Assembly: GCA_041650915.1 (NCBI GenBank)
Contig: JBAZKE010000005.1
Span: 11,310 to 75,309, forward strand
Reading direction: 5' to 3'
DNA from: Patescibacteria group bacterium
Lineage (GTDB): Bacteria > Patescibacteriota > Patescibacteriia > UBA10025 > JAHIVO01
DNA length: 64,000 nucleotides
A model generated the notes under the pieces. That model made no database searches, was not told where the DNA came from, and saw nothing but the letters and a program-made list of their open reading frames with translations. A program made the translations under genes and the position numbers. Positions 3,021-25,520 of this stretch are shown here, piece by piece (position 1 is the first letter of the stretch; every line of letters starts with the position of its first letter).

Positions 3021-3281
3021 CTAGGTTTGCGCGCCCCGCACTTCTATGACGCTCAGCTCCCTTCCGGTCCCCTTTTGGATGACGAGATCCGCCCCTTCAG
3101 CAATCGTATTTTTTGAGATGAGCCCGAAGTTAAAGCGGAGATTTTCCGGTGATAGTTCCTCATTGTGCTCAACAATTTTTCCAAGCCGAATGATGACCTG
3201 AGTAATCTTCGTGAGCTTATTCTTCTCTGCCGTTTGGACAGCGGCTCTCACAATGTCCTGCGCTGCAAGTAAATCATGCAT
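3021..3281 (-). CDS. HypA-like hydrogenase nickel-insertion protein, N-terminal domain only (no Zn-finger)
   Basis: 86 aa. MHDLLAAQDIVRAAV...NTIAEGADLVIQ parallels the HypA N-terminus (MHE..A..IV... / ..IAEGAE...), including the His2 nickel ligand. The ORF ends before any CxxC...CxxC zinc motif. Confidence 0.55.
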   Translation of the reverse strand: MHDLLAAQDIVRAAVQTAEKNKLTKITQVIIRLGKIVEHNEELSPENLRFNFGLISKNTIAEGADLVIQKGTGRELSVIEVRGAQT

Positions 3282-3385
3282 ACCATGAAGTGAAAACTAT
3301 GCCGAGTTAATATACGAGGCGGCCAGGTGGCTCAACACGCAATGAAGGAAAGAAACTCCACAAAAACAGCCCGGATTCTTTCAGA

Positions 3386-4663
3386 TTAATGCGTCGCACA
3401 GGTCATGCACGGATCATAGGCGCGAATCAACATGCCAAGCTTACGTTCGTCAGCCGCGGAAAAACTCTTTTTTGAACCGATATACTGCACAAGGTCGTGT
3501 TCGAGATTATTGATCATTTGCGCGGTCGGCGTAATGATATTCACGTTCTTCAGCTTCCCGAGTTTGTTCGTCTCGTAGTAGTGGAGCAAGATGCCGCGCG
3601 GCGCTTCAATCGCACCCGTGCCCTTTCCCGGACGTACCGAATATCGAACCATCGGTTTGACGTTTTTCATCCCGAGGTACTGCCGGAGCAGTTTTTGCGC
3701 TTCCTCAATGCAGTGGATAAGCTCAATTCCCTGGCACAGGACGTTGAAAAACGAATTGTCGATCGGCAGTTTGACATTCACGCTTCTGAGCGCCTGTTTG
3801 GCAATCGGATTAAGCTGTTGCCAATTATTATTTATGCGCGCGAGCGCCCCGACAAAGTACGGCTTGTTCTTATGCGTTGTCCGTTTGACGTAGTCATCGG
3901 GCGAATGAAGCTCACGGATCGACTGCATAAATGCGGCGGGGGTTTGCTTCAAACCCTTGTTCGATGCGACCGTACCGTCGTAGATCGCATATTCATGGGC
4001 TGAGCTGAGGCAAATATTTTCAGTCGGGCGGTGGAAGTCGGTAAACCTGAGATGCGACATGAAATGGGCGAGCTCGAGCGTTTGCTGCACAATGGCCTGG
4101 CTCCCGTCGAGCAGCTTCTTCATTTCGGCGGCATCCGGCAGCTTGAGAAATCCGCCGACTTGTGAATTGACCGGGTGCAGGGGCCTTCCGCCAATCACGT
4201 GCGTTATTCTGTTCCCGAATTCCCTGATCTCAAGCGCAGCAGCGGTATACTTCGGGGCAATCGATACGAGGTCAAGCGCGGAATCCTTGCCGTAAAAATC
4301 GGGAATGCACATAAAGTACGCGTGCACGCCGTGGCTCGTTACCGTCTGACCGAGCATCATCAGCTTCCGGAGCAAAACCGTGCTCGGCGCGACCTGTATT
4401 TCCATTCCATCCTCGAGGGCTTTAATTGCCGTCAGGTTGTGGACGATCGGGCAGACGCCGCAGATGCGTGAGGTCACGAGCGGCGCGTCCATGTAGTCCC
4501 GCCCGACGAGCACCCCCTCGATAAGGCGGGCTCCCTCGAGCGTACGATACCGCGCTTCTCCCACATTGCCTTTCTTGAGCGCGCCCCAGAATGTCGCGTG
4601 CCCTTCTATTCTCGTAATATGCTTTATGGATACCGTTTTCATATAGTTACTTTTGTGCTTCAT
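3386..4663 (-). CDS. [NiFe] hydrogenase large (alpha) subunit, group 3-like (sulfhydrogenase/F420-non-reducing type)
   Basis: 425 aa. The N-terminal RIEGH with the CGVC motif and the C-terminal DPCMTCATH (DPCxxCxxH) are the Ni-Fe ligand motifs. The protein ends exactly at the His, with no C-terminal extension. Confidence 0.9.
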   Translation of the reverse strand: MKHKSNYMKTVSIKHITRIEGHATFWGALKKGNVGEARYRTLEGARLIEGVLVGRDYMDAPLVTSRICGVCPIVHNLTAIKALEDGMEIQVAPSTVLLRKLMMLGQTVTSHGVHAYFMCIPDFYGKDSALDLVSIAPKYTAAALEIREFGNRITHVIGGRPLHPVNSQVGGFLKLPDAAEMKKLLDGSQAIVQQTLELAHFMSHLRFTDFHRPTENICLSSAHEYAIYDGTVASNKGLKQTPAAFMQSIRELHSPDDYVKRTTHKNKPYFVGALARINNNWQQLNPIAKQALRSVNVKLPIDNSFFNVLCQGIELIHCIEEAQKLLRQYLGMKNVKPMVRYSVRPGKGTGAIEAPRGILLHYYETNKLGKLKNVNIITPTAQMINNLEHDLVQYIGSKKSFSAADERKLGMLIRAYDPCMTCATH

Positions 4664-5447
4664 ACCAATCTTCCTGGATGCCGAATATCTGCAGTATGCT
4701 GTTGAGCTCTTCCCTGGTATGGTTTTCGAGGATCTGCCGTTCGAGCTGCTTCGTGGAGTAGCCGGGAATCATCCCCCTGCATCCCTTGCAGAAAAATTTT
4801 GAGTTGAGGCATACCGCGTCGCACCCGCCGCGGGTGACCGGGCCGAGGCACGGTTCGCCCTTCTGCAGCACGCATTCATTGCCGTTCAGCTGGCACTCGT
4901 AGCAAACCGGATTCTCGAGAAGCTTGGGGCTGATGCCTTCCCTGACTGCATTGAGTATTGCGATGATATCCCTGCCGTCAGGCGGGCATCCGGGCAGCTC
5001 GAGATCAACTTTTACAAAATGCTTGAGCGGCCGGATGTCGGGATTGAAAACTTTCGTGTGGGTCTGCGGATACACGTAACGCACTGCCCGCTCCTTATCA
5101 ATGTGGTTTTTGATATTGGGAATAACGCCGTGGCACGCGCACGCGCCGAACGATACGAGGACTTTCGTACGCTTTCGCGCCGCCTTGAGATTCGCGATGT
5201 TCTGCTTGGTCAGCGGCGCGCCCTCGACGAACGTCACGTCATACGGCTCATTATTTTTTTCGTCCATGATGAGAAAAAAATCGCCGAGCTCAAAGTGGTC
5301 GACCGCGCCGATAAATTCCGCTCCCATGTCGATTGCGGATACCGAGCAACCGTCGCACGAGGTCAGCCCTACGATCGCTATGCGCAGTTTTTTTCGGGGC
5401 GGCGGTGTCCCTTGTTTTTTCTGAGCTTTCTTCATACGTTCGTACAC
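4647..5447 (-). CDS. [NiFe] hydrogenase small (delta) subunit
   Basis: 266 aa. The AIVGLTSCDGC N-terminal motif (proximal cluster) and further Cys clusters (GCPP, CYEC, GCDAVC) match the group-3 small subunit. It overlaps the large-subunit start by 17 bp. Confidence 0.85.
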   Translation of the reverse strand: MYERMKKAQKKQGTPPPRKKLRIAIVGLTSCDGCSVSAIDMGAEFIGAVDHFELGDFFLIMDEKNNEPYDVTFVEGAPLTKQNIANLKAARKRTKVLVSFGACACHGVIPNIKNHIDKERAVRYVYPQTHTKVFNPDIRPLKHFVKVDLELPGCPPDGRDIIAILNAVREGISPKLLENPVCYECQLNGNECVLQKGEPCLGPVTRGGCDAVCLNSKFFCKGCRGMIPGYSTKQLERQILENHTREELNSILQIFGIQEDWYEAQK

Positions 5448-5450
5448 TTA

Positions 5451-6716
5451 CTACCTGGGCAAAAAGTCAGCCTGGCGTTCAGGATCGCAAATGCTCATCG
5501 TGACATCCAACATGAAATCGCAAATCAATGACGTTTCACCAGTGCGGCCCATGAGTTCTTCGGTGCGTGAACAGTGGCCCGTATACTCCTCGTGCAAATC
5601 GACCTGCTCTTTCTCGTTGAGCACCCCGTCGATCACGAGCTCTGAACCGCGTTTCCACTCTCTGCAGAGGCTTACAGCATCAACCGTGCTGCTGACAGAT
5701 TCTGCAATAAGCTTCTCGCAGAAGTCCAAAAAAATCTCCCCGGTCATCACACTGCTCCCATGTGGATCGTAGCACGCTACAATTTCATCGTAATCACTGT
5801 GCCCGTCATCGTCCGTATCCGACGTACTGGCATCGAGTCCAAACCAGGTTTCGACGCGGTCATCAAGCTTATCATCATCCTTATCGACGGCTGCAGCCGG
5901 TATGCCGCCGGCATTAACATTCACCGCAGTGTTTGTATTTGTCGTACCGCTGTTTTTTCCGGCCAATGGATGGTATATGTGCGCATCAGCCGAATCGCTG
6001 CTCTCGGCATCCGATGCATTGACGTTTGCGGGCGTATCACTGCTTTCCGGCTCTTGTTCCGGGCTGAGCTCATCGCTGCTCATGATCACGAATCCGCCGG
6101 CGTACAGCTCAGTGACCTCCGCGATGACCTGCCTGCTCGTAATATCATACGTGCTGTCGAGCCCGACAAACCGGCTAAGATCCTCATCCCAGAATGCGAT
6201 CACAAAGTTTTTTTCCTCGTGCCGCGCTCCGTTGATGATGCCGACCTTTTCAAGGCCGTTGCTCGTATAAGCCATCATAAGCATGGCCGGTTTCTTGAGC
6301 TGGAGCCCCTTCGGTTCAAAATCTACCGTACACCCGATATCCCCGCGGTATACGGCGATGGTGATCTCAACGCCGGGATCAATCGCGTCTTCAGGCACGT
6401 CAATGCGAGCCCCGCCGTACGTCGTCACATTTTCTTCGTCAGTGCACGTTTTCGCGATCGTAATCACCCGGGTTGATCCGGCATTCGTACCGGCTGTACC
6501 CCCGCTGAAAATATCCCCAACTGCCGCATTCTGGTTCTCGTCGGTAACCTCAACCCCCCACACGAGATAGGCAGCGGCACCGATAATCACGATCAGTAGG
6601 ATCGCGATTACCATAATGAAGAGCGTATTCGAGCGCGGCGGCAATGCTGACGGCTGTTGGCCAATTTTTTTCCGGCTGCTGTTTTTTTCCGGCTGCGGAG
6701 TCATAGTGAATATCAA
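5451..6716 (-). CDS. hypothetical membrane-anchored protein with an acidic Ca-binding-like (thrombospondin type-3-like DxDxDG) linker
   Basis: 421 aa. One N-terminal TM helix (IMVIAILLIVIIGAAAYLVW), a long D/E/S-rich region containing ETWFGLDASTSDTDDDGHSDYDEIVACYDPHG, then a C-terminal globular domain. Paralogous to 6728..7465. Confidence 0.5.
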   Translation of the reverse strand: MIFTMTPQPEKNSSRKKIGQQPSALPPRSNTLFIMVIAILLIVIIGAAAYLVWGVEVTDENQNAAVGDIFSGGTAGTNAGSTRVITIAKTCTDEENVTTYGGARIDVPEDAIDPGVEITIAVYRGDIGCTVDFEPKGLQLKKPAMLMMAYTSNGLEKVGIINGARHEEKNFVIAFWDEDLSRFVGLDSTYDITSRQVIAEVTELYAGGFVIMSSDELSPEQEPESSDTPANVNASDAESSDSADAHIYHPLAGKNSGTTNTNTAVNVNAGGIPAAAVDKDDDKLDDRVETWFGLDASTSDTDDDGHSDYDEIVACYDPHGSSVMTGEIFLDFCEKLIAESVSSTVDAVSLCREWKRGSELVIDGVLNEKEQVDLHEEYTGHCSRTEELMGRTGETSLICDFMLDVTMSICDPERQADFLPR

Positions 6717-6727
6717 ATAATTTTTTA

Positions 6728-7465
6728 TTACAAACCTAGCTGGTCAAAATACAGGTTGAGCCGCTCCACATCGCATATATTGAAAGCTGCGTTCGAGAGC
6801 ACGTAACAAACCGAATCCAGGTCGAAGCCTTCGCTCGCAAACTCGGCTGACTGTTCACACAGCGCGTTAAATGCCGCGTCGTATGTCGATATTACCTCAC
6901 GGGGATCATCACCTCGCAGATGGGCATCAATTGCCCGCTCGGCGAGCGGCCACCATACCGCGCACGGCTCCTCAAGCCCGCCCTCGTACGTAAACTCATA
7001 CGACTCGAGGAACGCAGCACAGTAAGACACAAACTGCTCTTCAGTCACGTCTCCTTCGCCGTTGGGGTTCGTGCAGGCGTTGATCTCAAAATAATCTGAC
7101 GTGCCGTCTTCGTCCGAATCCTGGCTGTCCGTACTGGTGCCAAACCACGCCTCGACTTCATCGAGCAGCTTATCTTCGTCACTGTCTGGCGGGCTGGCAA
7201 ACGCAATGCGGTCCGGGTCGAAAAAACCTTCGGATTCGGCGATCTCACTCACCGTCTGCGGCAGGGTTTCATTGCCGGCTGCCGGTTGCCCGTCAGCATC
7301 CGTGCCGATCACGCTTACTGAAAAATTGCTGAAATAAAAAGCAAATCCAGCCCCCACAATACCAAGCAGCACGGCTCCGGTAACGATTACCGACAGCAGG
7401 CTGCGGCTCCGGATCTTCGTTTCCGGTTCTGGTTCAAGTGAGTATCGCTTATCGTTTCCTAGCAT
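6728..7465 (-). CDS. hypothetical membrane-anchored protein, paralog of 5451..6716
   Basis: 245 aa. N-terminal TM helix, then VEAWFGTSTDSQDSDEDGTSDYFEINACTNPNGEG, the same motif as its neighbour. Overlaps hypC by 7 bp. Confidence 0.5.
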   Translation of the reverse strand: MLGNDKRYSLEPEPETKIRSRSLLSVIVTGAVLLGIVGAGFAFYFSNFSVSVIGTDADGQPAAGNETLPQTVSEIAESEGFFDPDRIAFASPPDSDEDKLLDEVEAWFGTSTDSQDSDEDGTSDYFEINACTNPNGEGDVTEEQFVSYCAAFLESYEFTYEGGLEEPCAVWWPLAERAIDAHLRGDDPREVISTYDAAFNALCEQSAEFASEGFDLDSVCYVLSNAAFNICDVERLNLYFDQLGL

Positions 7466-7686
7466 AGGCTCGAATGATTACGGATACCCACAAAAGTTTT
7501 TAAAGTATCCGCCGCTTCTTCTTGTGTGAGTTTGCTGACCGCGAAATGGTTTTCATTGACCACGTAATCGCCTTCCTTCACGCCCGGAACAAGCCGGATA
7601 TCGAGCGTGTGCGTTTTTTTGCCGCACGCAACGGTAGCGGTCGTACCGTCGATGCTGATAATCTTATGCGGAATAGTGAGGCACAT
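7459..7686 (-). CDS. hypC: hydrogenase maturation chaperone HypC/HupF
   Basis: 75 aa. Starts MCLTIPHKIISI, matching the MC(L/I)(A/G)(I/V)P signature. Small OB-fold size. Confidence 0.85.
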   Translation of the reverse strand: MCLTIPHKIISIDGTTATVACGKKTHTLDIRLVPGVKEGDYVVNENHFAVSKLTQEEAADTLKTFVGIRNHSSLC

Positions 7687-7689
7687 ACG

Positions 7690-8544
7690 CTAGCTTGAAA
7701 ATAATACCGTATCTTTTTTTTGGAGTGGGGCTATAACGCCTTTCAAATCCTCGTCAGTCCACAGCTTTTGGAAATTGAAATCCCGCTCTGACTGCCCAAG
7801 TATCTTGCCGGCCATATCCGTTTTGAAAAAAGATTCCTTGGCGTAGTCAATTGGCTGCCTGCTCCCGAGCACCTGCTTCATTGTCTTCTGGATAAACGAT
7901 TTCCGCTGCTGCTCGCGGGCGAGCCGCCTGGCAAAGGTTTTCAACCTTTCGCTGCCAGCGGCCGCGACGACCACGCCGAAGTGGTGGAACACCGTCTGCT
8001 CCTTGGCGGCCTGCAGACCGGGAGGCACGAGTACGTGTGAAAAGTGCACCGCCCCGCCAGCGAGAACGACCTCCAGTTCAACGAGCTGCCGCTGGCCGAC
8101 GCGCTGTGCATGGGTTACCGTGCCGGTGGTGAGCACGTGCGCGAGCGCATACGCAGGCGGCATTCCGATTAACTCGGCATTTTCTTCAACGGCATCGGCA
8201 TGGTCGAGCGCAAAACATTCCAGTAAATGGGCTGCCGAAATCTCCGTAATGCCCGTACGCTGGGCGAACGACGCGACCTGCGATGGGAATGCCGTGATAA
8301 TGTGCGGAGAAATCGCTGAGAGCGGCACCGGTACGCCGGTTGCGAACGTCGCGAGGTTGATGTCAGACTTGCATCCGGGATGGATAAATAAATGAACGAG
8401 TATGCGCACTGCTTCCGGCTCGAGCACGATCGTTTCAAAATCCGGATGCGCGAGGCGGCGTGCTTTTTCTAGGTTTATAATAATGTTACGTTGTTGTTTT
8501 TTCACTCTAACATTCTTAAGAATGTTCCTACGAGAGCATGTCAC
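7690..8544 (-). CDS. hypothetical protein (function not recognised)
   Basis: A 284-aa ORF tightly packed between hypC and the ArsR gene. No motif I can assign. Confidence 0.4.
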   Translation of the reverse strand: MTCSRRNILKNVRVKKQQRNIIINLEKARRLAHPDFETIVLEPEAVRILVHLFIHPGCKSDINLATFATGVPVPLSAISPHIITAFPSQVASFAQRTGITEISAAHLLECFALDHADAVEENAELIGMPPAYALAHVLTTGTVTHAQRVGQRQLVELEVVLAGGAVHFSHVLVPPGLQAAKEQTVFHHFGVVVAAAGSERLKTFARRLAREQQRKSFIQKTMKQVLGSRQPIDYAKESFFKTDMAGKILGQSERDFNFQKLWTDEDLKGVIAPLQKKDTVLFSS

Positions 8545-8816
8545 CCACTCTCACTAATTTGTCGAAATATTCCAGAACCTTTAAATGATTTCGTCAACTT
8601 GTAATAATTGAATTTTCCTTTCCGCTCTTTTTCAAGAATACCTTCGCGCTCCATCTTTAGTAAATGAAAAGATCCAGCTTTAAATGAAATCTTTAACTTC
8701 GAGCTGATATCGACAACTGACCGAGAATCCTTTGCGAGTAGTTTTATGATTACCATCCTCCGCTCATTGGAGAGTGCCTTGAAAACGTGCGCTAACCTTT
8801 TAGTAGAGTATACCAT
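8541..8816 (-). CDS. ArsR/SmtB-family winged-helix transcriptional regulator
   Basis: 91 aa. ALSNERRMVIIKLL...SVVDISSKLKIS...HL..MEREGIL fits the ArsR HTH pattern. Confidence 0.7.
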   Translation of the reverse strand: MVYSTKRLAHVFKALSNERRMVIIKLLAKDSRSVVDISSKLKISFKAGSFHLLKMEREGILEKERKGKFNYYKLTKSFKGSGIFRQISESG

Positions 8817-8848
8817 TTTTTTTTATTCTAACATTCTAAAGAATGTTC

Positions 8849-9754
8849 CTATATCGGTCTTTTTAACTTTAGCATATTACGGAACGATTCCAAACCAACG
8901 ACAAGTACGATACCAATAATCAACACACCTACGCCTCCAATCTTTTGCGGGGACCATGTAACGCCCTCAGTTGCAACGAACGCTATCAAGCTGGTAATGG
9001 GCGCACCGAGCGCGAGTACTGACGTGGCAACAGACGCCCGCGTGTATTTCAATCCATGGTAAAAAGTATAAACATACCCTAATAACAATACGGAAGTAAT
9101 CGCAACCCACTTCCACTGCTCAGGATTATAAGCAAACAAGGAACCCAGCTGGTCCGTCAACATCAGAAATACAGCGATGAACGCCGCACCGAAAAACATA
9201 CGTCCCCAGGCAACGATTCGCGGCGAGAGCGTCGCAAGCAAACGCTTAGAAAGAATGATTTCTACTGCCCACAAAAGCGTGGCGCCCAAAATCAGCACAT
9301 CACCCCATGATACTGTCTGCACCTGGATATCGAGAAACAGGAAGTTGCCGAGCAGGAGCGCACCGAGGCCGAGTAGTACGCTCTTGTTCAGCTTTTCTTT
9401 AAGAAAAATAATCGCCAGAAAGCTGACGTAGATAAACAGCGTCTTATGGATAAACCCACCCTGTGCAGCTGACGTCATTGACAGACCCTTGAAAAACAGA
9501 AGGAACGGTACTGCGCCGCCAACCAATCCAATAAGTCCCAATCTAAGCCAGTCTTTTTTCTTGAGCTGTTTAATTCCCTGCCACTCCTTCATCAAAAGCA
9601 TGAACAACAGCAACCCCAGGCCAACAAGCAGATTCTTCATACCGGTAAATACGTACGGATTCGCGAACTTCACGCCCATACCGTTTACGTATATCGAAAC
9701 GCCCGAGATAAGCGCGGTTGCGAGTACGAACAGTATGCCTTTTCGTTCATTCAT
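8849..9754 (-). CDS. EamA/DMT-family transporter (10 TM)
   Basis: 301 aa, entirely hydrophobic helices in two 5-TM halves, typical of EamA duplication. Confidence 0.7.
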   Translation of the reverse strand: MNERKGILFVLATALISGVSIYVNGMGVKFANPYVFTGMKNLLVGLGLLLFMLLMKEWQGIKQLKKKDWLRLGLIGLVGGAVPFLLFFKGLSMTSAAQGGFIHKTLFIYVSFLAIIFLKEKLNKSVLLGLGALLLGNFLFLDIQVQTVSWGDVLILGATLLWAVEIILSKRLLATLSPRIVAWGRMFFGAAFIAVFLMLTDQLGSLFAYNPEQWKWVAITSVLLLGYVYTFYHGLKYTRASVATSVLALGAPITSLIAFVATEGVTWSPQKIGGVGVLIIGIVLVVGLESFRNMLKLKRPI

Positions 9755-9800
9755 AATGTTATCCTCATTCTGAACTTGTTTCAGAATCTAACCAATATAA

Positions 9801-10637
9801 TCACGTGTAGTACTGCGTATTATCCCGCAGCTGGTCGAATGAAAATATGGGCCCGTCTTTGCACACGTACAAGTCCCCGATCGCGCAGTGCTGGCACGTG
9901 CCGAGGCCGGCGCAGTGCATCCTCCGTTCGAGCGACAGGTAAATGTCTTCGTCTTTGTATCCAACCTTCTGCACTTCAGGCACCACAAATTTGAACATGA
10001 TCGGCGGGCCGCACAGCACCGCGACACCGTTCTTCACGATATCCGCTTTTTCAAACAGCACTGTTATCACGCCTTTGTAGCAAGAAATTGCCCCGAACGT
10101 TTCATCGTTGCCCTGGTCCATCGACATCGTGATGTTGAACTTTTTCGCGTGCTGCATGAGCTCATCACGCCACAGAATTTCTCCGTAATTCCGGCATCCG
10201 TACAGCAACTGAATCCGCCGGTTTTCCGTATCGAGTTCGTCCCTATTGGAGAGATAATGGATGAGCGAACGGAGCGGGACAAGCCCGAGGCCGCCGGCAA
10301 TGAGCAGAATATTTTTCCCCTTAAATTTTTTCAAATCGAATCCGTTGCCGTACGGGCCGCGGACGCCAAACGAATCCCCTGCATCAAACGTATGGAACTT
10401 CGAGGTAACCCTGCCGACCTTCATTACTCCGATATCATACGCATTCTTTATTGTCAGCGACTCCGCCGGCACAAACACCGACTCCCCGAAGCCGGGAATG
10501 GAAAAGACAAAGAACTGCCCCGGCAAATACTCCAATCCCTTGCCGTCTTTCATGGTAAACGTAAACGACTTCACGCTCGGCGATTGCTGCTTCGTGCTGA
10601 TGATGGTCGCTCCTCTGTGTTCGTACGGATTGCGCAT
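9801..10637 (-). CDS. hydrogenase gamma subunit (FNR-like FAD/NAD(P)-binding oxidoreductase with a C-terminal Cys cluster; HydG/AsrB-like)
   Basis: 278 aa. Has a PGQFF FAD-binding-like motif, GGLGLVP, and a C-terminal CxxGxCxxC cluster (CAGLGTCQHCAIGDLYVC) for a 2Fe-2S centre. Confidence 0.85.
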   Translation of the reverse strand: MRNPYEHRGATIISTKQQSPSVKSFTFTMKDGKGLEYLPGQFFVFSIPGFGESVFVPAESLTIKNAYDIGVMKVGRVTSKFHTFDAGDSFGVRGPYGNGFDLKKFKGKNILLIAGGLGLVPLRSLIHYLSNRDELDTENRRIQLLYGCRNYGEILWRDELMQHAKKFNITMSMDQGNDETFGAISCYKGVITVLFEKADIVKNGVAVLCGPPIMFKFVVPEVQKVGYKDEDIYLSLERRMHCAGLGTCQHCAIGDLYVCKDGPIFSFDQLRDNTQYYT

Positions 10638-10723
10638 ATGGTACTGTCATTCTGGCCCCGGACAAAGCCACGGAGGGAAAACCCCCCGTAACGCTAATAA
10701 AACTAAACCCGTTACAATAGCCC

Positions 10724-11743
10724 TCACCTGTTCTTTTCTTGCCCTTGCGTGCTTGTACGACCCCTTTCCTTATGCTCACGCAGGTACTTGAAAACGTCAG
10801 CGCGCTTAATGCCGACCGGGCATACCCTGTCGCACCTGCCGCAGTTCACGCAGCCCATGATCTGGAACTCCTTCGGCGTCCGCACCCACTTGTGCGTATA
10901 CCAGTTCTGGATGCGCTGGGCGTTCGTCTTGAGAAACTTCTGTCCGCCGCCGATCTCGGAAAAATCGTTGTAAAAGCAGGTTGTCCACTTCCGGACGCGC
11001 CTGCCGCTCCCCTTTTCCTTCGTATCCTGCTCGTCCTCAATATTGAAGCAGTAGCAGGTCGGGCAGTCTACCGCGCACTTGCCGCACGCAGTGCAGATCG
11101 CCCCCCAGTGCTCCCACGCGTCCTGTGAAGCTTCAACAATCTCCTTACGGTGGCGCTCGAGCTCGGGGTCAATGCCCTCTTCTTTCAGAAGCCCGGCAAA
11201 CTCGATGTGCTCAAAATCCTTGATGCCGAGCTCTTCGAGTATCACCTGCCCCTTTTCCGATCCGGTAAAAACCTTCCACGCCGCTTTCCCCGTCTTTGCA
11301 AGGAAAATATCGAAAATTATGTGCTCGAGAATGTCCTCCTCGTACCGTTCCCTGAGGTGCCCGGAAAAACCCGATCCCTCGAACAGCGCATGCCCGACGA
11401 GCAGGCTCGTTTGGCGTTTTTTCTGGTAGTACGGGTCGCGCTCGAACGTCTGGTGGAAAAGCCCGACAGCTTTCAGGTCCATCACGGACATCAGAAAAGC
11501 GCACTCCGGCGCATACTGCAGCTTTGGCTTGAGCATCGTGCCCTTTTTGTAATCGAAAAGTGTTTCACGCTTCGGCAGGAGCACGTGTTTGAACGTATTG
11601 ACCGGGATTTGGGGCGAGAAATCGATCTCACCTATGTCCGTTACGCGCTGTACGTACAGTTCGCTGCCGTCCCGTACCGGTGCGTACATCGCATACGCTT
11701 CCAGCAGGTGCGCGATAAATTTATGTAACGTTGCCCGATTCAT
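10724..11743 (-). CDS. hydrogenase beta subunit (HydB/AsrA-like, two 4Fe-4S ferredoxin motifs)
   Basis: Has CTACGKCAVDCP and CVNCGRCDRVCP motifs. The track ORF runs to 11959, but that would overlap the upstream gene's terminator. The start at ATG 11743 (MNRATLHKF...) gives 340 aa, the family-typical length. Confidence 0.8.
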   Translation of the reverse strand: MNRATLHKFIAHLLEAYAMYAPVRDGSELYVQRVTDIGEIDFSPQIPVNTFKHVLLPKRETLFDYKKGTMLKPKLQYAPECAFLMSVMDLKAVGLFHQTFERDPYYQKKRQTSLLVGHALFEGSGFSGHLRERYEEDILEHIIFDIFLAKTGKAAWKVFTGSEKGQVILEELGIKDFEHIEFAGLLKEEGIDPELERHRKEIVEASQDAWEHWGAICTACGKCAVDCPTCYCFNIEDEQDTKEKGSGRRVRKWTTCFYNDFSEIGGGQKFLKTNAQRIQNWYTHKWVRTPKEFQIMGCVNCGRCDRVCPVGIKRADVFKYLREHKERGRTSTQGQEKNR

Positions 11744-11752
11744 GGTGCGTGC

Positions 11753-11781
11753 ATTATAACATAAATCATCACTCTGCTCAA
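11753..11781 (-). promoter_or_regulatory. candidate promoter TTGAGC-17-TATAAT directly upstream of the hydB start (near-leaderless)
   Basis: Minus strand reads ttgagcagagtgatgatttatgttataatgcacgcaccATG. The -10 box ends 9 nt before the ATG. Confidence 0.45.
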
Positions 11782-11792
11782 CATACGTGTTC

Positions 11793-11830
11793 ATAAAAAT
11801 CCCCCACGAAGAAGCGAGGCTCCGCAGGGG
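11793..11830 (-). terminator. intrinsic terminator hairpin after the CHAP/CTD gene (copy 1 of a duplicated terminator)
   Basis: Minus strand: cccctgcggag-cctcgctt-cttcgtggggg followed by ATTTTTAT. An 11-bp stem with G-U wobbles. Nearly identical to 35530..35567. Confidence 0.6.
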
Positions 11831-11865
11831 ATTTGGATGACAGGCCTCCCGGACGGGAGGGAGTA

Positions 11866-14800
11866 CTACTTGAGCAGTACCATTTTTTTTGTTTGCACGG
11901 CGTCCCCCGCGCGGATGCGGTAAAAATAGATGCCTGATGCGTACCGGCCAGCGGCCCACGAGATTTCGTGCTGGCCAGCAGTCTGGTATTCGTCAACGAG
12001 CGTTGCTACCTTTTGTCCGAGGATGTTGTACACGGAGAGCTCGACCATGCACGCGGTCGGCAACTCATACACAACCGTCGTTACGGGGTTAAACGGATTC
12101 GGGTAGTTCTGCCGGATAACGAGTTCTTCGGGCAGGACGTCATCACCCAGCTTATACGCATAGTGCGGGATATCAAGCGGGATAATGCCGGCCTCAACGG
12201 TATCGCCCGCGTTGATAGCTGCGGCAATGTCACGAGCAAGGAGGTCGCACGGACTCGCGTTGCCGCTGATCCAGCAGTCGATGGGGCTCGCACGGATAAG
12301 CGAATCACAGTACGTAATCGCCTGGGAAACCGACGCTCCGTCAGCGCTCACGGAATCCGACAGCGAGAGCCGGTATGCCGCGGCGTTCAGCATCAGCGCG
12401 GCAAGCTGCTGCTGTGCCTGGGATTGGATCGTTACGTAGCAATACGGGCCGGTTCGTTTTGCCATGACCGCATAACGCTCGGCGTTTTTGACCTCGAATT
12501 CCCGATGGCACACGCGCCTGTTGAAGAGCCCTGCCAGCTGCCCGAGCCGAGCGGAGCATTCCGGTTCATCGCTGATCACGACGGACCGAATGGGATGCGC
12601 ACGGTTCCCGTTGAAGTGGCGTTTGATGCGGTCAGCGAACGCGCAGAGGCTGTCGACAGGCTCAACGCCGGACGAATCGCCGTACACGATCTCATTGAGT
12701 TCGTGCCGCCAGTAGCTGGACCGCTGCTGGTTCGGAACGATATCCAGCTGCGTCAGCGAAAATGCCACACTGGCGTCCGCGCCCTGCAATACGGATACCG
12801 CTGCGAGATCGGAATCGGCCGCATACCCCAGCGGCGGCAGTATTCCGACCGAGTACTCGCCCGTAAGCACGTGCGGCAGTTCAAACGATCCGCTCGCGTC
12901 GGTATGCGCCGTGTATTGGCACACGCCGAACGTATCGCACACGTCAACCGCAACGCCGCGAACGCCTGCCATCGCGTCGTCAACCACGGTTCCGGAAATG
13001 GAGCCGATCGGCGCTGATCCCGCGACGAGCGCGTACGGATACGCGTCATGCGGGATATCGATGGCCTCAACCCCAAACGTCCACTCGCCGGCTGCGTCCG
13101 GCACGAACTCCGCTGTTATCGGCGGCTGGCTGGACTGCCATTCGCCGAATACGGTCCCGTCAGGACGGTACGCCGTCAGCTTGAGCTCGCTGCCGAGCCA
13201 GTTGAGCAGCAGCCGCCAGGTCTCGTGGAAACTGTCAATTACGAAATCCCACAATGAAGTGTCGCCTTCATCTATGTAGCCTTCGACGCCGCCTTCCTGC
13301 GTATACGCATCCGGCAGCTGATCTCCAGTCTCCTCCAATAACATGGCAGCGTGGTAGAGCGCGGCGATATCTTCATCCGTCAGCGCCCGATCGTACAGGC
13401 GAACCTCATCAACCGTGCCCGGCAAAAACCCGTCGAAATTGCTGTATCGCCCGATACGAAGGTTCTTGCCATAATTCTGTATGGTTCCGCTCAGCGGGCA
13501 TGAGCCGATGAACTCCGCGTTAACGAATAGCTCTATGGCAGACCCGTCATACGTTCCCACCACGAAGTACCAATTCCCAGGCGTCCAAAAACCATTGTCA
13601 GTTCCCACAGAAGCGTGGGAGCCGGCTGTCACCGAGAAAAGGAACTTCGCGTAGTATTCGCCGTCGTACTGGTCGCCGCACGCTCCAAGGTGGTACTGGT
13701 AATACGGAAACGCGTGCCGCAGATACCCCTTGTCGAAAAGAGGATCGTTGCCCGTGCCCTGGAATGACACCGGCCGGTACCATGCCGCGAGCGTGAGAGC
13801 ATTCGGAGGATTGAGGCTGGCCGCATTGCCGAGATCGATATGGTCGTCAATGCCGTCGAAATCCAATGCCAGGCCGGATATCCCGTCAACCGGAGTAGCG
13901 CCGTATACGGTGCCGTCATTGCCATTCCCCGAATTATCGCCCGCATCCCCAGCATCGAAACTCCAGTAAGCGACCAGGCCGGCTGACAGCGGGTCTACCC
14001 GGATCTTTAGCGTCAGCCCTTCCCCGGAAAAATGCTCTCCCGAGTGCGGCCGGTACAGCGCCACGTACAGGTAGTAGTCACCCGGCGTAAAAGGAGCCTG
14101 AATCTGGAATGAATACAAACCCTGTCCGCCGGGATTAACCAATCCTTCGGGATCGCCTTCCGTAGAAACAATGGCTACACAATTGGGATCAATCCAGTCG
14201 TACGCCAATTCGGATGGCAATCCGTCACTCCACGGTTCAGCGCTTCCCGGACCGGTCACCGATTGCAGCTCCACATAGTGCGGGCTGTTCTCATCATTGG
14301 TCCAGTACGCCGTGCCGAGATTATTGAACGTAAACGACACATTCAGTACCTGCCCAGGAGCTACCGGATAATAGTCCAAGCCGGGTGGGTAGATGGGGGT
14401 TTGGGAGGACCAGCAGGCGTCGTAAGTACCACCATAGTCAGGATCCCGGAGCCAGCCTTGGGTAACATACGCACCACTACTACTAAATGATCCTACACTA
14501 TAGGGCGGGTTAGATGATAGAGAAAGCTGTTTCGGATCCGGCTCTATTTGACCATCGGTTCGATTCTGATCAATCATCAGCACATAGTCCGGCCCAACTT
14601 CCATTATGATTCCTACGTGACCAGCATTATCATGCTCCGGCGCAGGGCCAAAACAGATAATGTCGCCCGATTCCGGTGGAATAATGGACTCGCCATTTAC
14701 ATACTGATCAAGAGTGTCAGTACTCGCCCATGAATCGAAGGCATTTTTGGCCACTCCTCCACTGATGGGATTAAGTGGGTTTAATACCTCAAACTCATAG

Positions 14801-15033
14801 AAACGCTTCACATACTCGACACACTGATAAAAGCCGCAGCCTCCTCCAGTCCAATCACCATTGGAGTGGGCAGTAATTCCTCTGAACTCAGCGAGTGGAC
14901 AGCCATAGTTACCGGAAGCCCATTGCCCCTCCTGACCACAGTCTTCATCAAAGTAGATCTCAGGACAATCAGCAAACGATGGTGTGGAGAGTAAATTCCA
15001 TACCATGAGACACAAGAACATCACGTGTTTCAT
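11866..15033 (-). CDS. secreted multidomain protein: N-terminal CHAP peptidoglycan amidase/peptidase domain, LamG/concanavalin-like domain, carboxypeptidase-regulatory-like domain, C-terminal T9SS-type sorting domain
   Basis: 1055 aa. Signal peptide (MKHVMFLCLMVWNLLSTPSFA). CHAP region (CGFYQCVEYVKRFYEF ... HVGIIMEV). LamG-like (WYRPVSF...VDEVRLYDRALTDEDI). CTD NYPNPFNPVTTVVYELP...VYNILGQKV...SGIYFYRIRAGD...MVLLK. Confidence 0.8.
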   Translation of the reverse strand: MKHVMFLCLMVWNLLSTPSFADCPEIYFDEDCGQEGQWASGNYGCPLAEFRGITAHSNGDWTGGGCGFYQCVEYVKRFYEFEVLNPLNPISGGVAKNAFDSWASTDTLDQYVNGESIIPPESGDIICFGPAPEHDNAGHVGIIMEVGPDYVLMIDQNRTDGQIEPDPKQLSLSSNPPYSVGSFSSSGAYVTQGWLRDPDYGGTYDACWSSQTPIYPPGLDYYPVAPGQVLNVSFTFNNLGTAYWTNDENSPHYVELQSVTGPGSAEPWSDGLPSELAYDWIDPNCVAIVSTEGDPEGLVNPGGQGLYSFQIQAPFTPGDYYLYVALYRPHSGEHFSGEGLTLKIRVDPLSAGLVAYWSFDAGDAGDNSGNGNDGTVYGATPVDGISGLALDFDGIDDHIDLGNAASLNPPNALTLAAWYRPVSFQGTGNDPLFDKGYLRHAFPYYQYHLGACGDQYDGEYYAKFLFSVTAGSHASVGTDNGFWTPGNWYFVVGTYDGSAIELFVNAEFIGSCPLSGTIQNYGKNLRIGRYSNFDGFLPGTVDEVRLYDRALTDEDIAALYHAAMLLEETGDQLPDAYTQEGGVEGYIDEGDTSLWDFVIDSFHETWRLLLNWLGSELKLTAYRPDGTVFGEWQSSQPPITAEFVPDAAGEWTFGVEAIDIPHDAYPYALVAGSAPIGSISGTVVDDAMAGVRGVAVDVCDTFGVCQYTAHTDASGSFELPHVLTGEYSVGILPPLGYAADSDLAAVSVLQGADASVAFSLTQLDIVPNQQRSSYWRHELNEIVYGDSSGVEPVDSLCAFADRIKRHFNGNRAHPIRSVVISDEPECSARLGQLAGLFNRRVCHREFEVKNAERYAVMAKRTGPYCYVTIQSQAQQQLAALMLNAAAYRLSLSDSVSADGASVSQAITYCDSLIRASPIDCWISGNASPCDLLARDIAAAINAGDTVEAGIIPLDIPHYAYKLGDDVLPEELVIRQNYPNPFNPVTTVVYELPTACMVELSVYNILGQKVATLVDEYQTAGQHEISWAAGRYASGIYFYRIRAGDAVQTKKMVLLK

Positions 15034-15112: not shown

Positions 15113-15820
15113 TTATGTTAGTTTAAGTGTTGAAATTATCATTTCTATAACATCAATTTCACTCGAAAGGTCTGTTGCGGCAAAGTTTTGTTCGTAGGTC
15201 GCGTTGTCCGATAGAGGATAAATGACCGAATACTCTGCGTATAACACCCTATCACCGACTTGTGGAAAAATTGTTGACTCATTTCCTAAATACCATGCTT
15301 TTATTTTACTATCAACGACAACAACGGTAGTAGGCACTTCACGTTCATGAATGGTTACTGGATCACCTGGCACATACTTTCCATTATATGTCACAAAAAA
15401 GTAAGTCCTACTGGTTAATAAATATGAATCATCAACCTTCTTGATACCTAATTCTAACTCTCGATCATTATTTTCACTTGAAAACCTCACAAATTTTGCA
15501 TCGCCTGATAGGTTTGGATTATCAATTAATTCAACATCCTCGACTGTCCACTCGGACGGGATTTTTATCGAGTATCCGTGCTCTTCATTCTCATACGTCA
15601 ACCAGTCTGAGGTATCGATGTCTGAAAGAGTGGCTGTATTTGTGTTCTCGTTTGAATTAGCATCGGTATTAATATTGGTCGCTGTATTCACATTTTCATT
15701 GGTGGCAACAATATTCGTAGTATTCGTATTCCCCTCATTATCCTGAAAAAACAGGAAATACCCGCCAGCCAGGATAATGGCGGCGATGAGGACGCTGACG
15801 ATAAGTGTTGTTTTTGACAT
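15113..15820 (-). CDS. membrane-anchored N/T-rich protein, paralog family member A (possible partner of the adjacent hydrolases)
   Basis: 235 aa. Starts MSKTTLIVSVLIAAIILAGGYFLFFQDNEGNTN, then an N/T-rich low-complexity linker, then DTSDWLTYENEEHGYSIKIPSEWTVEDVEL. Paralogous to 16705..17367 and 31881..32609, and more weakly to 35604..36266. Confidence 0.6.
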   Translation of the reverse strand: MSKTTLIVSVLIAAIILAGGYFLFFQDNEGNTNTTNIVATNENVNTATNINTDANSNENTNTATLSDIDTSDWLTYENEEHGYSIKIPSEWTVEDVELIDNPNLSGDAKFVRFSSENNDRELELGIKKVDDSYLLTSRTYFFVTYNGKYVPGDPVTIHEREVPTTVVVVDSKIKAWYLGNESTIFPQVGDRVLYAEYSVIYPLSDNATYEQNFAATDLSSEIDVIEMIISTLKLT

Positions 15821-22711: not shown

Positions 22712-23410
22712 TCATAATATTGTTATATTCTTGTGATCATGTCGTAAAAAATGATAAAAAAAGGGATTCAATGTTTTTAACTTTTCATTACTATCGGTAA
22801 TATCATTAATCAAAGTGACAGAAAGACTCTTATCATCGACTCCGTAATATTTGTATGGAAAACTTATAGCACGAAAGCCAAACTGCTTATATCGCTCTCC
22901 ATGCTCTACAGAACATGTAATAACAAAATGAGTAATCCCGTTGTTAATTGCATATATAATTGCTGACTTTATTAAACCCAACGAAACAATTTTATTTCGA
23001 AAATCCTTTTTCACAACAAAACGTGATAACTCTGCATACCTCGCATTATTAGGCATATATTGCTTCACCGTATAATGCTCTTCTGTCAGAACTTGCTTTT
23101 GGTGATTTGGTATGATCCGAATTCCTCCAATTACTTGACTGTGTTGATTTGTGACTACAATTGACGTTGCATACACATCGTATTGGTCTGTCTCCATCTC
23201 GGAAGGATAATCTTCCTTCGGTAAAAATCCCTTCTCTAGACAATAAACTTGATACCTTAATCGGAATAAATATTTTTGCTCATCTTCTTTTGCGATGTGA
23301 AAAGAATACTGTCTCATCCTATAATTAACCACTGGCAGTGAGAATATTAATAGAATTTTCCTTTCAAACCATTTTTGCACATTCATATCACAATTTATAT
23401 CATACCACAA
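22712..23410 (-). CDS. LuxI/FeeM-like N-acyltransferase (autoinducer synthase / N-acyl amino acid synthase fold, GNAT-related)
   Basis: Contains the ...ARYAELSRFVV... motif characteristic of this family, and the N-terminal LFRLRYQVYCLEKGF pattern. The true start is more likely ATG 23317 (MRQYSFHIAKEDEQ..., about 201 aa) than the track's 23410. Confidence 0.5.
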   Translation of the reverse strand: MWYDINCDMNVQKWFERKILLIFSLPVVNYRMRQYSFHIAKEDEQKYLFRLRYQVYCLEKGFLPKEDYPSEMETDQYDVYATSIVVTNQHSQVIGGIRIIPNHQKQVLTEEHYTVKQYMPNNARYAELSRFVVKKDFRNKIVSLGLIKSAIIYAINNGITHFVITCSVEHGERYKQFGFRAISFPYKYYGVDDKSLSVTLINDITDSNEKLKTLNPFFYHFLRHDHKNITIL

Positions 23411-24080: not shown

Positions 24081-25520
24081 TTAGTGCCTCGTACCAATTC
24101 GTTCCACCGCTTGTTTATACAGCAACGCATTCGCTATTGCATTCGTCATTTGGAACTGAAGTCTGGATAAATACTCCACGTTGTCGGAGGTATATGCCTC
24201 GTTCTTTTTTTTGCGTCCGAACGTGAAAGCGCCGATGAGCTCCCCCTTTTCTCCGATCGGCAACACCATGCTGACCCCCAGCTTTTGTAACGTCGCCTCC
24301 GCATCGAGGAGGAGCTGCTTCTCGCCATTTTCCTCCTCATCAGCCCGGTACGGAATCTCTTCCGTTATCAATACTCCCAGGTGCTCGCGTAAATACTGGA
24401 ATACGGAATCGGTAGGCTCCAGCTCGATGCGCTTATCCTCTTTGTAGTAATTTTCTAGTTTGCCATTCCGTTTATTGAGCCAGATAAATTGAATGTCCTG
24501 CACTTCCAGGAAATCAGCTAACAAAAGTATTACCTTTTTAATCAGCTGGTCAAACTGGACCGAAGACGAGAGTACGATCCGCAGCTTATGCGCCTCTTCC
24601 TGGGCTGATTTTTTCCGTGCGTAGAACACCCTATCAATCATTGTCACTAAAACTCTCCGCAGTGGTTCAACGCTGGTTACAATTATCAATACCAGAATAA
24701 TCGTAGCAGTCTGTTCTTGCCAAGCGTACTGTTCGATCAGTAATCGCTGGAATATTATAAGAAGGTAAATGTATAAAAAAAGTATTATCAATAATGCAAT
24801 AAAATGTACAAACCCTTTGCGGAAAGCGAGTTTGATATCAAGCAAACGGTAACGAAGAATTGCATATGACATCCCAGCCGTCATAAAAATTGTACATAGA
24901 GGTCCGAACAATGATGGCCGTACATCCAGAGAACTAATAAAAAGAGGCCAAATTAAATTTGTGAACACTCCCCCAATAGCACTGATGGCAAAACCAGCAA
25001 TAACATACCTCAATTTTAGCTTTTCAATGGGAAGCGCACTTTTGTACGTTTGAAAAAAATAATAAAATCCGATAAAAAAATAGAGCAGGATATACATGCA
25101 ATAAAATGGGTACCAGGAACCGTAAACGGAACCATTTAAGCCGCCTATAGCATTTTGAACGGACTCTTTAAATACTAGACTTGTTAAACTAAGGCAGCAA
25201 AAAAATATTGGCAGTACTGACAATATAAAATTCTTTTTTATAGGAACTTTTTTCTCCTTTGGAAAATGTAAAACAAAATAAATAAATAAGGGTACAATCA
25301 ACGAAGCAGATACAAATGCTGCTCTACCAGTTATTAATGCCAATTGGCAATCGCTACTAATATTTGAATAATAGCTGCTTCCCACCCAAGCACTCACAAC
25401 AAACGATAAAAAGAAAAAATAAATATTGACCTTCCGCCTCACTCCTTTTAGCAGAACAAACAATCCGAGCGAGATATTCGCCACAACCACAAAAATTGTG
25501 ATAATGCCAAGTAACGTCAT
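24081..25520 (-). CDS. membrane sensor module (multi-TM + GAF) without kinase output; paralog of the histidine-kinase N-terminal half
   Basis: 479 aa. About 8 TM helices ending in ILRYRLLDIKLAFRKG (cf. IVRHRLLDIRFVVLRT in the kinase), then a GAF-like domain. No H-box or ATPase. Confidence 0.65.
   Translation of the reverse strand: MTLLGIITIFVVVANISLGLFVLLKGVRRKVNIYFFFLSFVVSAWVGSSYYSNISSDCQLALITGRAAFVSASLIVPLFIYFVLHFPKEKKVPIKKNFILSVLPIFFCCLSLTSLVFKESVQNAIGGLNGSVYGSWYPFYCMYILLYFFIGFYYFFQTYKSALPIEKLKLRYVIAGFAISAIGGVFTNLIWPLFISSLDVRPSLFGPLCTIFMTAGMSYAILRYRLLDIKLAFRKGFVHFIALLIILFLYIYLLIIFQRLLIEQYAWQEQTATIILVLIIVTSVEPLRRVLVTMIDRVFYARKKSAQEEAHKLRIVLSSSVQFDQLIKKVILLLADFLEVQDIQFIWLNKRNGKLENYYKEDKRIELEPTDSVFQYLREHLGVLITEEIPYRADEEENGEKQLLLDAEATLQKLGVSMVLPIGEKGELIGAFTFGRKKKNEAYTSDNVEYLSRLQFQMTNAIANALLYKQAVERIGTRH

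Follow-up and report, generated by a model that had tools for sequence, protein, structure and literature searches.

Tail-less large subunit and zinc-less HypA in a hyd1 group-3b [NiFe]-hydrogenase cluster of Patescibacteria

The maturation of [NiFe]-hydrogenases is generally taught as a six-protein Hyp pathway that ends in a nickel-dependent proteolytic checkpoint. The 64,000-nucleotide stretch of DNA analysed here (the window), from contig JBAZKE010000005.1 of a Patescibacteria group bacterium (GCA_041650915.1), carries a gene cluster for a four-subunit group-3b [NiFe]-hydrogenase that departs from this scheme at two points. Its large (alpha) subunit ends at the histidine of the L2 motif, with no maturation protease gene in the window, and its HypA lacks the zinc domain. 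Both features are shared with the related clusters of its clade.

Layout and identity of the hydrogenase cluster

Eleven genes are arranged head-to-tail between positions 3021 and 11743, all on the minus strand and where the first-pass annotation had placed them. The genes that it had listed between gamma and delta (an EamA transporter, an ArsR regulator, an unassigned open reading frame (ORF), hypC and two acidic paralogues) are all present. In the direction of transcription, the features are as follows.

11753..11781, minus strand: sigma-70-like promoter candidate, TTGAGC-17-TATAAT with a TG extended -10 (consensus match only)
10724..11743, minus strand: beta subunit, HydB/ShyB/AsrA-like, 4Fe-4S dicluster, 339 amino acids (aa) (Fer4_22, 9.5e-27; ShyB, 4.6e-28)
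9801..10637, minus strand: gamma subunit, FAD/NAD(P)-binding, 2Fe-2S, HydG/ShyC/AsrB-like (PRK08345, 3.2e-64; ShyC, 6.7e-55)
8849..9754, minus strand: EamA/DMT-family permease (EamA, 1.9e-36)
8541..8816, minus strand: ArsR/SmtB-type helix-turn-helix regulator (NF033788, 58.6 bits, cut-off 55)
7690..8544, minus strand: 284-aa protein ("A1 family") without Pfam match, in the DUF6390 slot
7459..7686, minus strand: HypC-like chaperone, 75 aa (Pfam HupF_HypC)
6728..7465, minus strand: acidic protein with a single transmembrane (TM) segment, paralogue 1, TSP3-like DxDxDG motif
5451..6716, minus strand: acidic single-TM protein, paralogue 2
4647..5447, minus strand: delta (small) subunit (Oxidored_q6; ShyD/HydD, with ShyD at 1.1e-47)
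3386..4642 (ORF to 4663), minus strand: alpha (large, catalytic) subunit (NiFeSe_Hases; best models ShyA/HydA)
3021..3281, minus strand: HypA-like protein (mini-HypA), 86 aa (Pfam HypA)

The beta ORF is open to 11959, and its start is placed at 11743 because a promoter-like site lies upstream and the homologues are 322–337 aa long. This site (11781-11753), a 10/12 match of the extended -10 type just upstream of the beta ATG, is preceded by a terminator-like hairpin at 11819-11802. The gamma subunit consists of NAD_binding_1 and DHODB_Fe-S_bind domains, and the NCBI start of alpha is Met8 (4642), which gives 418 aa. The intergenic gaps from gamma to alpha range from -7 to +46 nucleotides (nt) and are compatible with one transcript. 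The tight spacing and the promoter-like site in front of beta suggest that the whole region is likely a single operon.

All four subunits of a group-3b enzyme are found, with best matches to ShyA-D/HydA,B,D,G and AsrA/B. Both Ni-Fe ligand motifs of alpha, L1 (RICGVCPIVH) and L2 (DPCMTCATH), are present. Among the NCBIfam models, alpha matches ShyA (1.7e-73) far better than VhuA (5e-39) or FrhA (2e-38). Its best sequence matches in the PDB are Pyrococcus furiosus sulfhydrogenase I (SHI) alpha and Thermococcus kodakarensis HyhL (1e-54 to 2e-56), ahead of Mvh (1e-45) and the NAD-reducing enzymes (1e-35). These profile and PDB matches bear out the earlier description of the cluster as group-3b-like. 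The score of alpha against the curated ShyA/HydA equivalog is 248 bits, below the NCBIfam cut-off of 700, and alpha therefore belongs to a divergent subclade rather than being orthologous to the archaeal enzymes. The alpha product is 100% identical to an NCBI protein of a Patescibacteria group bacterium, encoded on a 79-kb contig. The sequences among its 120 best homologues belong to Patescibacteria, that is, the candidate phyla radiation (CPR), or are labelled only "bacterium". A CPR clade of group-3b hydrogenases, "hyd1", has been described in which genes for the alpha, small, gamma and beta subunits occur together with a HypC-like family, and in which beta and gamma do not in every case directly precede the small subunit gene (Jaffe et al. 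2020, PMC7304191). The window cluster is a member of this published clade, and the cluster as such is already known.

The gene order is conserved throughout the clade. Nine homologous loci were retrieved by exact protein sequence, with alpha identities of 45–74%, and all nine carry beta, gamma, accessory genes, delta, alpha and an HypA of 80–87 aa in the same order. The accessory block reads either HypC/EamA/DUF6390 or EamA/(ArsR)/284-aa protein/HypC, and the same arrangement is found in further hyd1 loci of species-representative genomes. The first-pass annotation had described a hydrogenase split into two halves by a 4.3-kb insert. The gamma–delta interval indeed measures 4353 nt (5448-9800), but this is the normal layout of the clade, and the conserved synteny excludes a recent insertion of the genes in between. 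Only the ArsR gene and the genes of the two acidic membrane proteins are variable, the remaining intervening genes being conserved, and the interval is best regarded, on gene order, as a conserved hydrogenase-associated module and not as foreign DNA. An extra gene is sometimes present between delta and alpha in the nine loci. A member of the malate/L-lactate dehydrogenase family (Ldh_2, PF02615) occupies this position in L004 (9066-10004), L006 (9011-9982), L007 (9033-10004) and L010-L013, and there is nothing between delta and alpha in the window.

Genes for PGK and enolase directly follow the cluster in the window. All nine look-up loci continue with PGK, enolase and iPGM, often together with PTA, AckA and PFOR. 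The hydrogenase most likely vents surplus reducing power of NAD(P)H as H2, and such a disposal of fermentative reductant fits the adjoining glycolysis and fermentation genes.

The large-subunit tail, the maturation protease and HypA

The window alpha subunit ends with RAYDPCMTCATH, followed by a TAA stop codon, and there are zero residues after the His of DPCMTCATH. All 118 alpha homologues that contain L2 (44–100% identity) stop exactly at this His, with all four Ni-Fe cysteines and the L1 and L2 motifs intact. The lack of the cleaved C-terminal tail, read at first from the window alone, is thus a property of the clade, and a read-through or mis-assembled stop is excluded by the identical stop in 118/118 homologues. 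The alpha precursors of P. furiosus and T. kodakarensis have 4 extra residues (428 versus 424 aa). The group-3b relatives outside CPR carry an alpha tail of 7–12 residues (FLxLxV...) together with a protease gene, and their gene order is beta-gamma-delta-alpha-protease-HypA-HypC-EamA-DUF6390 (Chloroflexota, Dehalococcoidia, Armatimonadota and Desulfatiglandales). In the CPR clade hyd2, alpha also has a tail of 7–12 residues (FLKVKW...), and DUF6390 is directly followed by a divergent gene that resembles a protease gene. This protease-like family of about 130 aa has the motifs FGNP..ED, DTV and HDYDL (for example at L035:8726-9115, within a subset of loci L016-L087). It is missed by the hidden Markov model (HMM) of the canonical proteases, with which it aligns at an hhalign probability of 56% (E 1e-4).

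No endopeptidase of the HycI/HybD type was found in six frames of the 64-kb window by tblastn and by two HMMs (canonical and CPR-hyd2 type), in line with the earlier report that no maturation protease gene is present. The canonical-type and hyd2-type HMMs were likewise negative in 17 hyd1 loci. Among 65 loci, the protease gene lies in the cluster at 0/17 tail-less loci and at 48/48 tailed ones. Because hyd1 is monophyletic among the tailed clades in a neighbour-joining (NJ) tree of alpha, the parsimonious reading is one loss of both the tail and the protease at the base of hyd1. Naturally tail-less large subunits are on record for groups 2b, 2d, 4c, 4e and 4g, and group 3b is not listed (Hartmann et al. 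2020, PMC7294309). The joint loss of the tail and the protease throughout a clade of group 3b therefore appears new with respect to the literature searched.

The window HypA begins with MHD, has 0 cysteines and lacks the zinc domain. It matches positions 1–67 of the 112 positions of Pfam HypA (40.5 bits, cut-off 28.9), and positions 68–112 are unmatched. The 12 residues at its end (GRELSVIEVRGA) are the counterpart of the C-terminal strand in full-length HypA. Because this strand is present, the zinc domain has been excised internally and the protein has not been truncated. Only 97 nt separate the TAG stop of hypA from the start of PGK. This space, the existing C-terminal strand (RELSVIEV) and the family-wide length of 80–87 aa exclude a frameshifted zinc finger downstream. 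The first-pass annotation is therefore upheld in describing a HypA that keeps the Ni-binding N-terminus and lacks the zinc domain without a frameshift.

Among 1.8 billion representative proteins, an exhaustive HMMER search recovered 111 clusters of relatives. Of these, 79 are 74–100 aa long without CxxC (49 of them starting with MHD and 24 with MHE), and only 15 of the 111 have two CxxC motifs. Met1 and His2 are invariant in 65/65 aligned relatives. The AlphaFold2 (AF2) model of mini-HypA (predicted local distance difference test score (pLDDT) 89) superimposes in Foldseek on T. kodakarensis HypA (3A43_B) with a query-normalized TM-score (TMq) of 0.86 and a root mean square deviation of 1.8 Å, and on Helicobacter pylori HypA (6G81) with a TMq of 0.80, the zinc domain being a gap. 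Mini-HypA is a real family and, as modelled, has an intact Ni-domain fold. A review of 2019 states that all HypA proteins have both a site for nickel and one for zinc (PMC7055735), to which this Ni-domain-only family is an exception. Outside CPR, a 225-aa protein of Candidatus Caldatribacteriaceae (P0221, MGQ9622788.1) is a fusion of a hydrogenase maturation protease domain with an MHE-type mini-HypA; zinc-less HypA thus exists beyond CPR and can be physically joined to a protease.

The mini-HypA of hyd1 has a four-residue insertion after Gly34 that carries a conserved (E/D)-His pair (E38-H39 in the window). The insertion is found at every hyd1 locus, in none of 15 MHE-type mini-HypAs and in 0/7 mini-HypAs from outside CPR. 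The second position of the pair is His in 48 of 50 MHD-type sequences, at least one loop His is present in 50/50, and the loop is expanded to as many as six His in some proteins. Asp40 of H. pylori HypA, which lies in the same loop, is a Ni ligand, and in T. kodakarensis HypA the Ni site is completed by His98, on the side of the zinc domain, only within the complex of HypA with HypB (PMC7055735). The zinc-binding region of HypA carries residues that contact HypB (PMC13202556). Because the insertion lies in the Asp40 loop and His98 acts only with HypB, the loop His may be an extra Ni ligand that substitutes for the contribution of HypB and the zinc domain, and it would then allow HypB-independent nickel delivery. 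Consistently, a HypB signature is found only beside full-length HypA and never beside mini-HypA, although the numbers are small (3 loci). At these three loci, a HypB-like gene (ENVGNLVC; L063:5927-7124, L032:6221-7224 and L080:6539-7599) is adjacent to a full-length HypA with two CxxC motifs. Neither this family of HypA without zinc nor its His-loop subtype seems to have been described in the literature searched.

A short HypA, a missing tail and a split operon could also be signs of gene erosion in a decaying, non-functional hydrogenase, as might be expected in the reduced genomes of Patescibacteria. One locus indeed carries a chimeric fragment: in L001 (GCA_028718605.1, JAQULM010000001.1), a 135-aa ORF at 11896-12303 is a fusion of residues 1–62 of mini-HypA with the ~70 C-terminal residues of alpha, up to and including DPCMTCATH. 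Its place is between alpha and an intact mini-HypA, and it resembles a local duplication or a recombination scar. However, the Ni-Fe cysteines and L1/L2 are intact in all the homologues, mini-HypA keeps its invariant Met1-His2 and is predicted to fold as a complete Ni domain, and the gene order is kept across deep divergence, which makes decay very improbable. That the alpha stop, the short HypA and the gamma–delta separation stem from faulty assembly or annotation, or from a recent insertion of mobile DNA, deserves next to no credence. The contig is metagenome-assembled and its GC content is somewhat lower (0.44–0.48) over EamA and ArsR. On the other side, the same stop, HypA length and layout recur in independent assemblies (NCBI, JGI, ENA and Logan), so that comparison of the alpha stop in replicate assemblies refutes an artefact, and no transposase or integrase domain is found in the genes scanned in the region.

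The accessory module, Hyp proteins and flanking genes

The HypC-like protein begins with MCLTIP, keeping the Met-Cys start, matches Pfam HupF_HypC with 63.4 bits (cut-off 28.5) and aligns with T. kodakarensis HypC over residues 1–68. The canonical HypC histidine (His51 in Escherichia coli, His45 in T. kodakarensis) is replaced by Glu in the window protein. The hyd1 HypCs have E, Y, N or Q at this position, with His in 1/15.

A DUF6390 profile scan of species-representative genomes gave 338 relatives, of which the best 80 loci were analysed. A NiFe alpha gene lies within 8 kb at 58 of these 80 (31/38 of those with full flanks), EamA is immediately upstream of DUF6390 on the same strand at 57, and a HypC gene is present at 44. 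The C-terminal 60–70 residues of DUF6390 align with the whole HypC OB-fold (hhalign 82–89%, E 1e-5 to 2e-6), Cys152 falling on HypC Cys2 and His213 on HypC His51, and HypC/HupF proteins make up 3 of the top five weak PDB matches of the DUF6390 profile. On these alignments DUF6390 is predicted to carry a HypC-like domain. HypC-like protein, EamA and DUF6390 constitute a widespread hydrogenase-linked module across many phyla; no mention of it was found in the searchable literature, and it appears to be new in that respect.

EamA is present in all 9 hyd1 look-up loci. In 72 cluster-associated EamA proteins the conserved residues are N41, K104, E120, E165, K170 and R185, and the nearest NCBIfam model is a carboxylate/amino-acid/amine transporter. 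A bare Ni2+ permease is disfavoured by this set, in which no His/Cys/Asp cluster is found; the conserved residues argue for a small organic substrate.

The 284-aa protein has 61 homologues, all hypothetical and all from Patescibacteria, with C58, C110, D114, H115, H136 and H188 invariant. Its AF2 model (pLDDT 84) consists of a helical domain and a beta-barrel (139–195), with only weak OB-fold matches in the PDB. In the subclade of the window, the family always directly follows EamA, the position held by DUF6390 elsewhere, and its FHHFG motif lines up with the His of HypC and DUF6390. The hhalign probability is 5.6–13% with DUF6390, only over the GxxVxxHxG motif, and 3–21% with HypC, the higher values coming from small early alignments and the lower ones from enlarged alignments. 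The DUF6390 HMM has no match in the window, and none of 33 family members has a Pfam match at E <= 1. Membership of this ORF in DUF6390 is thus not established.

The two acidic single-TM proteins (isoelectric points 4.05 and 4.25) are paralogues (BLASTP E 1e-19) confined to the subclade of the window, and paralogue 1 is absent from L005-L009. The ArsR-type regulator is also present in L003 and L007. These three genes are, on their distribution, variable passengers. It may be asked whether EamA and the 284-aa ORF, too, are unrelated hitch-hikers, leaving only HypC and HypA as hydrogenase-related. The patchy occurrence of the ArsR and acidic genes, the generic character of a DMT permease nearest to carboxylate, amino-acid and amine transporters, and the lack of a recognisable relative of the 284-aa family are in favour of this view. 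However, the EamA–DUF6390 adjacency and the linkage to NiFe alpha hold across phyla and operon layouts, DUF6390 has a HypC-like domain, and the 284-aa family never leaves its place after EamA in the subclade. Hitch-hiking is therefore quite unlikely.

Signature motifs of HypB, HypD, HypE and HypF are absent from the six-frame translation of the window, and Pfam finds neither hypB/D/E/F nor an endopeptidase among the scanned window ORFs of at least 150 aa. The ORFs 11866-15033, 15113-15820 and 54636-62186 were covered by the motif and HMM scans only. Within ±8 kb of 89 loci, which include large-genome Chloroflexota, the HypD and HypF motifs are absent and the HypE motif occurs once. Because hypD/E/F are also non-adjacent to the homologous clusters of large-genome phyla, their local absence is uninformative about the genome, and local absence as evidence of genomic absence is rejected. 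The first-pass annotation was thus correct that no hypB/D/E/F are in the window but over-read this as a sign of atypical maturation. Its phrase "minimal or atypical maturation" does hold for the protease step and for HypA, where tail and protease as well as the zinc domain have been lost.

The opposite reading would be that HypB/D/E/F and the protease are lacking genome-wide, and that mini-HypA, the His-less HypC, the HypC-domain protein of DUF6390 type and EamA form a new minimal pathway by which the active site is built or acquired; the permease could then bring in a precursor from the host. In the 17 loci and the window, hyd1 is accompanied by homologues of HypA and HypC only, its HypC no longer has the His on which canonical HypC relies together with HypD, and a HypC-domain protein with conserved Cys and His and a permease are invariably co-encoded. 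The contigs with hyd1 genes measure 0.45–1.3 Mb, fitting the small genomes of the group, and searches of the literature on CPR gave nothing of relevance to hyp genes, to group-3b enzymes without a tail, to HypA without zinc or to DUF6390, and no report of hyp genes. However, the same module is found in large-genome Chloroflexota, Dehalococcoidia and Ktedonobacteria beside proteases and sometimes HypB. The hypD/E/F genes are non-adjacent there too. The module is therefore no replacement restricted to minimal genomes. Furthermore, every characterised [NiFe]-hydrogenase, the tail-less ones included, uses HypC-F (PMC7294309, PMC12134894). A new minimal pathway is therefore unlikely.

The wider window holds genes of other kinds. 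Large secreted proteins with CHAP, FG-GAP or fn3 domains and a Por_Secre_tail, a sorting domain of type IX secretion, are encoded at 32685-35495 and 41590-43467 and in the 11866-15033 region, and a CHAP/Por_Secre_tail protein also lies just upstream of the hyd1 cluster in L001. Patescibacteria are not known to possess a type IX secretion system or outer membrane, so that Por_Secre_tail is unexpected. At 17627-20506, 24081-25520, 29666-31135 and 22712-23410 lie genes for three HisKA_7TM proteins, of which one is a complete GAF histidine kinase, and for a GNAT protein of FeeM/autoinducer-synthase-like type. A HisKA_7TM-GAF kinase is immediately upstream of the hyd1 operon in L001, L003, L005 and L007, and because of this position it may be a regulator of the operon. 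A 757-aa ORF without Pfam match (46200-48473) and a giant ORF of 2516 aa (54636-62186) complete these observations.

Proposed maturation and comparison with known systems

The preferred explanation, to which we assign a probability of about 0.68, is a streamlined but otherwise canonical maturation of a hyd1 group-3b hydrogenase, encoded in one operon with its own accessory module. The region would serve as one operon for a cytoplasmic four-subunit [NiFe]-hydrogenase. The sequences show its maturation to be simplified at two points. The large subunit is made already "processed", ending at the His that is the mature C-terminus elsewhere, and for this reason the nickel-dependent endopeptidase step and its gene have been lost. 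The HypA that would deliver the nickel is stripped down to the Ni-binding domain; the zinc domain, the part that contacts HypB in canonical systems, has been excised. Beside the MH(D/E) site at the N-terminus, a conserved (E/D)-H loop has been newly added, and it may provide an extra Ni ligand. The accessory module, which lies after the structural genes in Chloroflexota and further phyla, would have moved to the middle of the operon in hyd1, and in the subclade of the window the DUF6390 slot is filled by a lineage-specific family with invariant Cys, His and Asp. The HypC-like protein and the DUF6390-type protein may jointly form a carrier or scaffold, specific to this enzyme, for the cofactor's iron portion, a role proposed with moderate-to-low confidence by analogy with HoxL/HoxV or HupF/HupK. 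Synthesis of the Fe(CN)2CO group by HypD/E/F is presumably encoded elsewhere in the genome.

Several points weigh against this explanation. The placement of HypD/E/F elsewhere is presumably right but is an assumption, as no HypB/D/E/F gene has been located for hyd1 organisms. The correlation of tail and protease counts loci and not independent evolutionary events. The proposal that the His loop provides a ligand is drawn from loop position and conservation and not from coordinates or chemistry. The conserved residues of EamA are unlike a metal-ion site, and the 284-aa protein, with hhalign values of 5.6–13% and no Pfam or PDB match, is not demonstrably a DUF6390 homologue. In addition, the matches to ShyA-D and HypA fall short of the NCBIfam equivalog cut-offs, so that these proteins are divergent members of their families.

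A streamlined maturation of this kind would mean that the proteolytic checkpoint is dispensable, a whole group-3b clade having dropped both checkpoint and protease. It would extend the list of tail-less hydrogenases to group 3, with the tailed sister clusters and their proteases as a before-and-after comparison. The family of HypA with the Ni domain only contradicts the textbook view of a universal zinc site and would offer a natural minimal chaperone for dissecting the roles of the zinc domain and HypB. The HypC-like/EamA/DUF6390 proteins, present in hundreds of species-level genomes, become candidate hydrogenase accessory factors. A hydrogenase that needs fewer helpers would be attractive for heterologous expression, and the system bears on how ultra-small CPR symbionts build a complex metallo-cofactor.

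The nearest described system is hyd1 itself, with which the window shares the Patescibacteria-specific large-subunit clade, genes for the small, gamma and beta subunits at the same place and a nearby HypC-like family. In its published description, neither the lack of a C-terminal extension nor the protease is mentioned, and the same holds for HypA, the EamA permease, DUF6390 and maturation (PMC7304191). P. furiosus sulfhydrogenases I and II and T. kodakarensis Hyh (9E15, 9NEZ and 5YXY) have the same four subunits (alpha-delta-gamma-beta) and L1/L2 motifs. The archaeal alpha aligns with that of the window end to end (E 2e-56), but the identity is only ~27%. The archaeal precursors of 428 aa carry a 4-residue tail after His424, whereas the window alpha carries none, and archaeal HypA has 139 aa with a Zn domain, whereas the window HypA has 86 aa without one. 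The archaeal structural genes are contiguous.

The tail-less H2 sensors (2b and 2d), CooH (4c), Ech (4e) and the 4g enzymes end at a conserved His or Arg and have no endopeptidase (PMC7294309). These groups are listed as users of the canonical Hyp machinery, and the tail loss of hyd1 would differ from them as a single event inside group 3b that went together with loss of the protease. Canonical HypA (E. coli HypA/HybF, H. pylori and T. kodakarensis) shares with mini-HypA the Met-His-(Glu/Asp) site, the Ni-domain fold and the returning C-terminal strand. Mini-HypA differs in lacking CxxC...CxxC, in its 4-residue insertion with His and in having Asp and not Glu at position 3. The HoxL/HoxV and HupF/HupK pairs of O2-tolerant hydrogenases combine a HypC-family protein with a second cofactor-holding protein encoded in the cluster (PMC12134894), which is the likeness suggested for HypC and DUF6390. 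However, HoxV and HupK resemble large subunits, whereas DUF6390 is predicted to consist of a helical domain and a HypC-like OB domain. Unlike HoxV and HupK, DUF6390 is accompanied by a membrane permease and is found in anaerobes.

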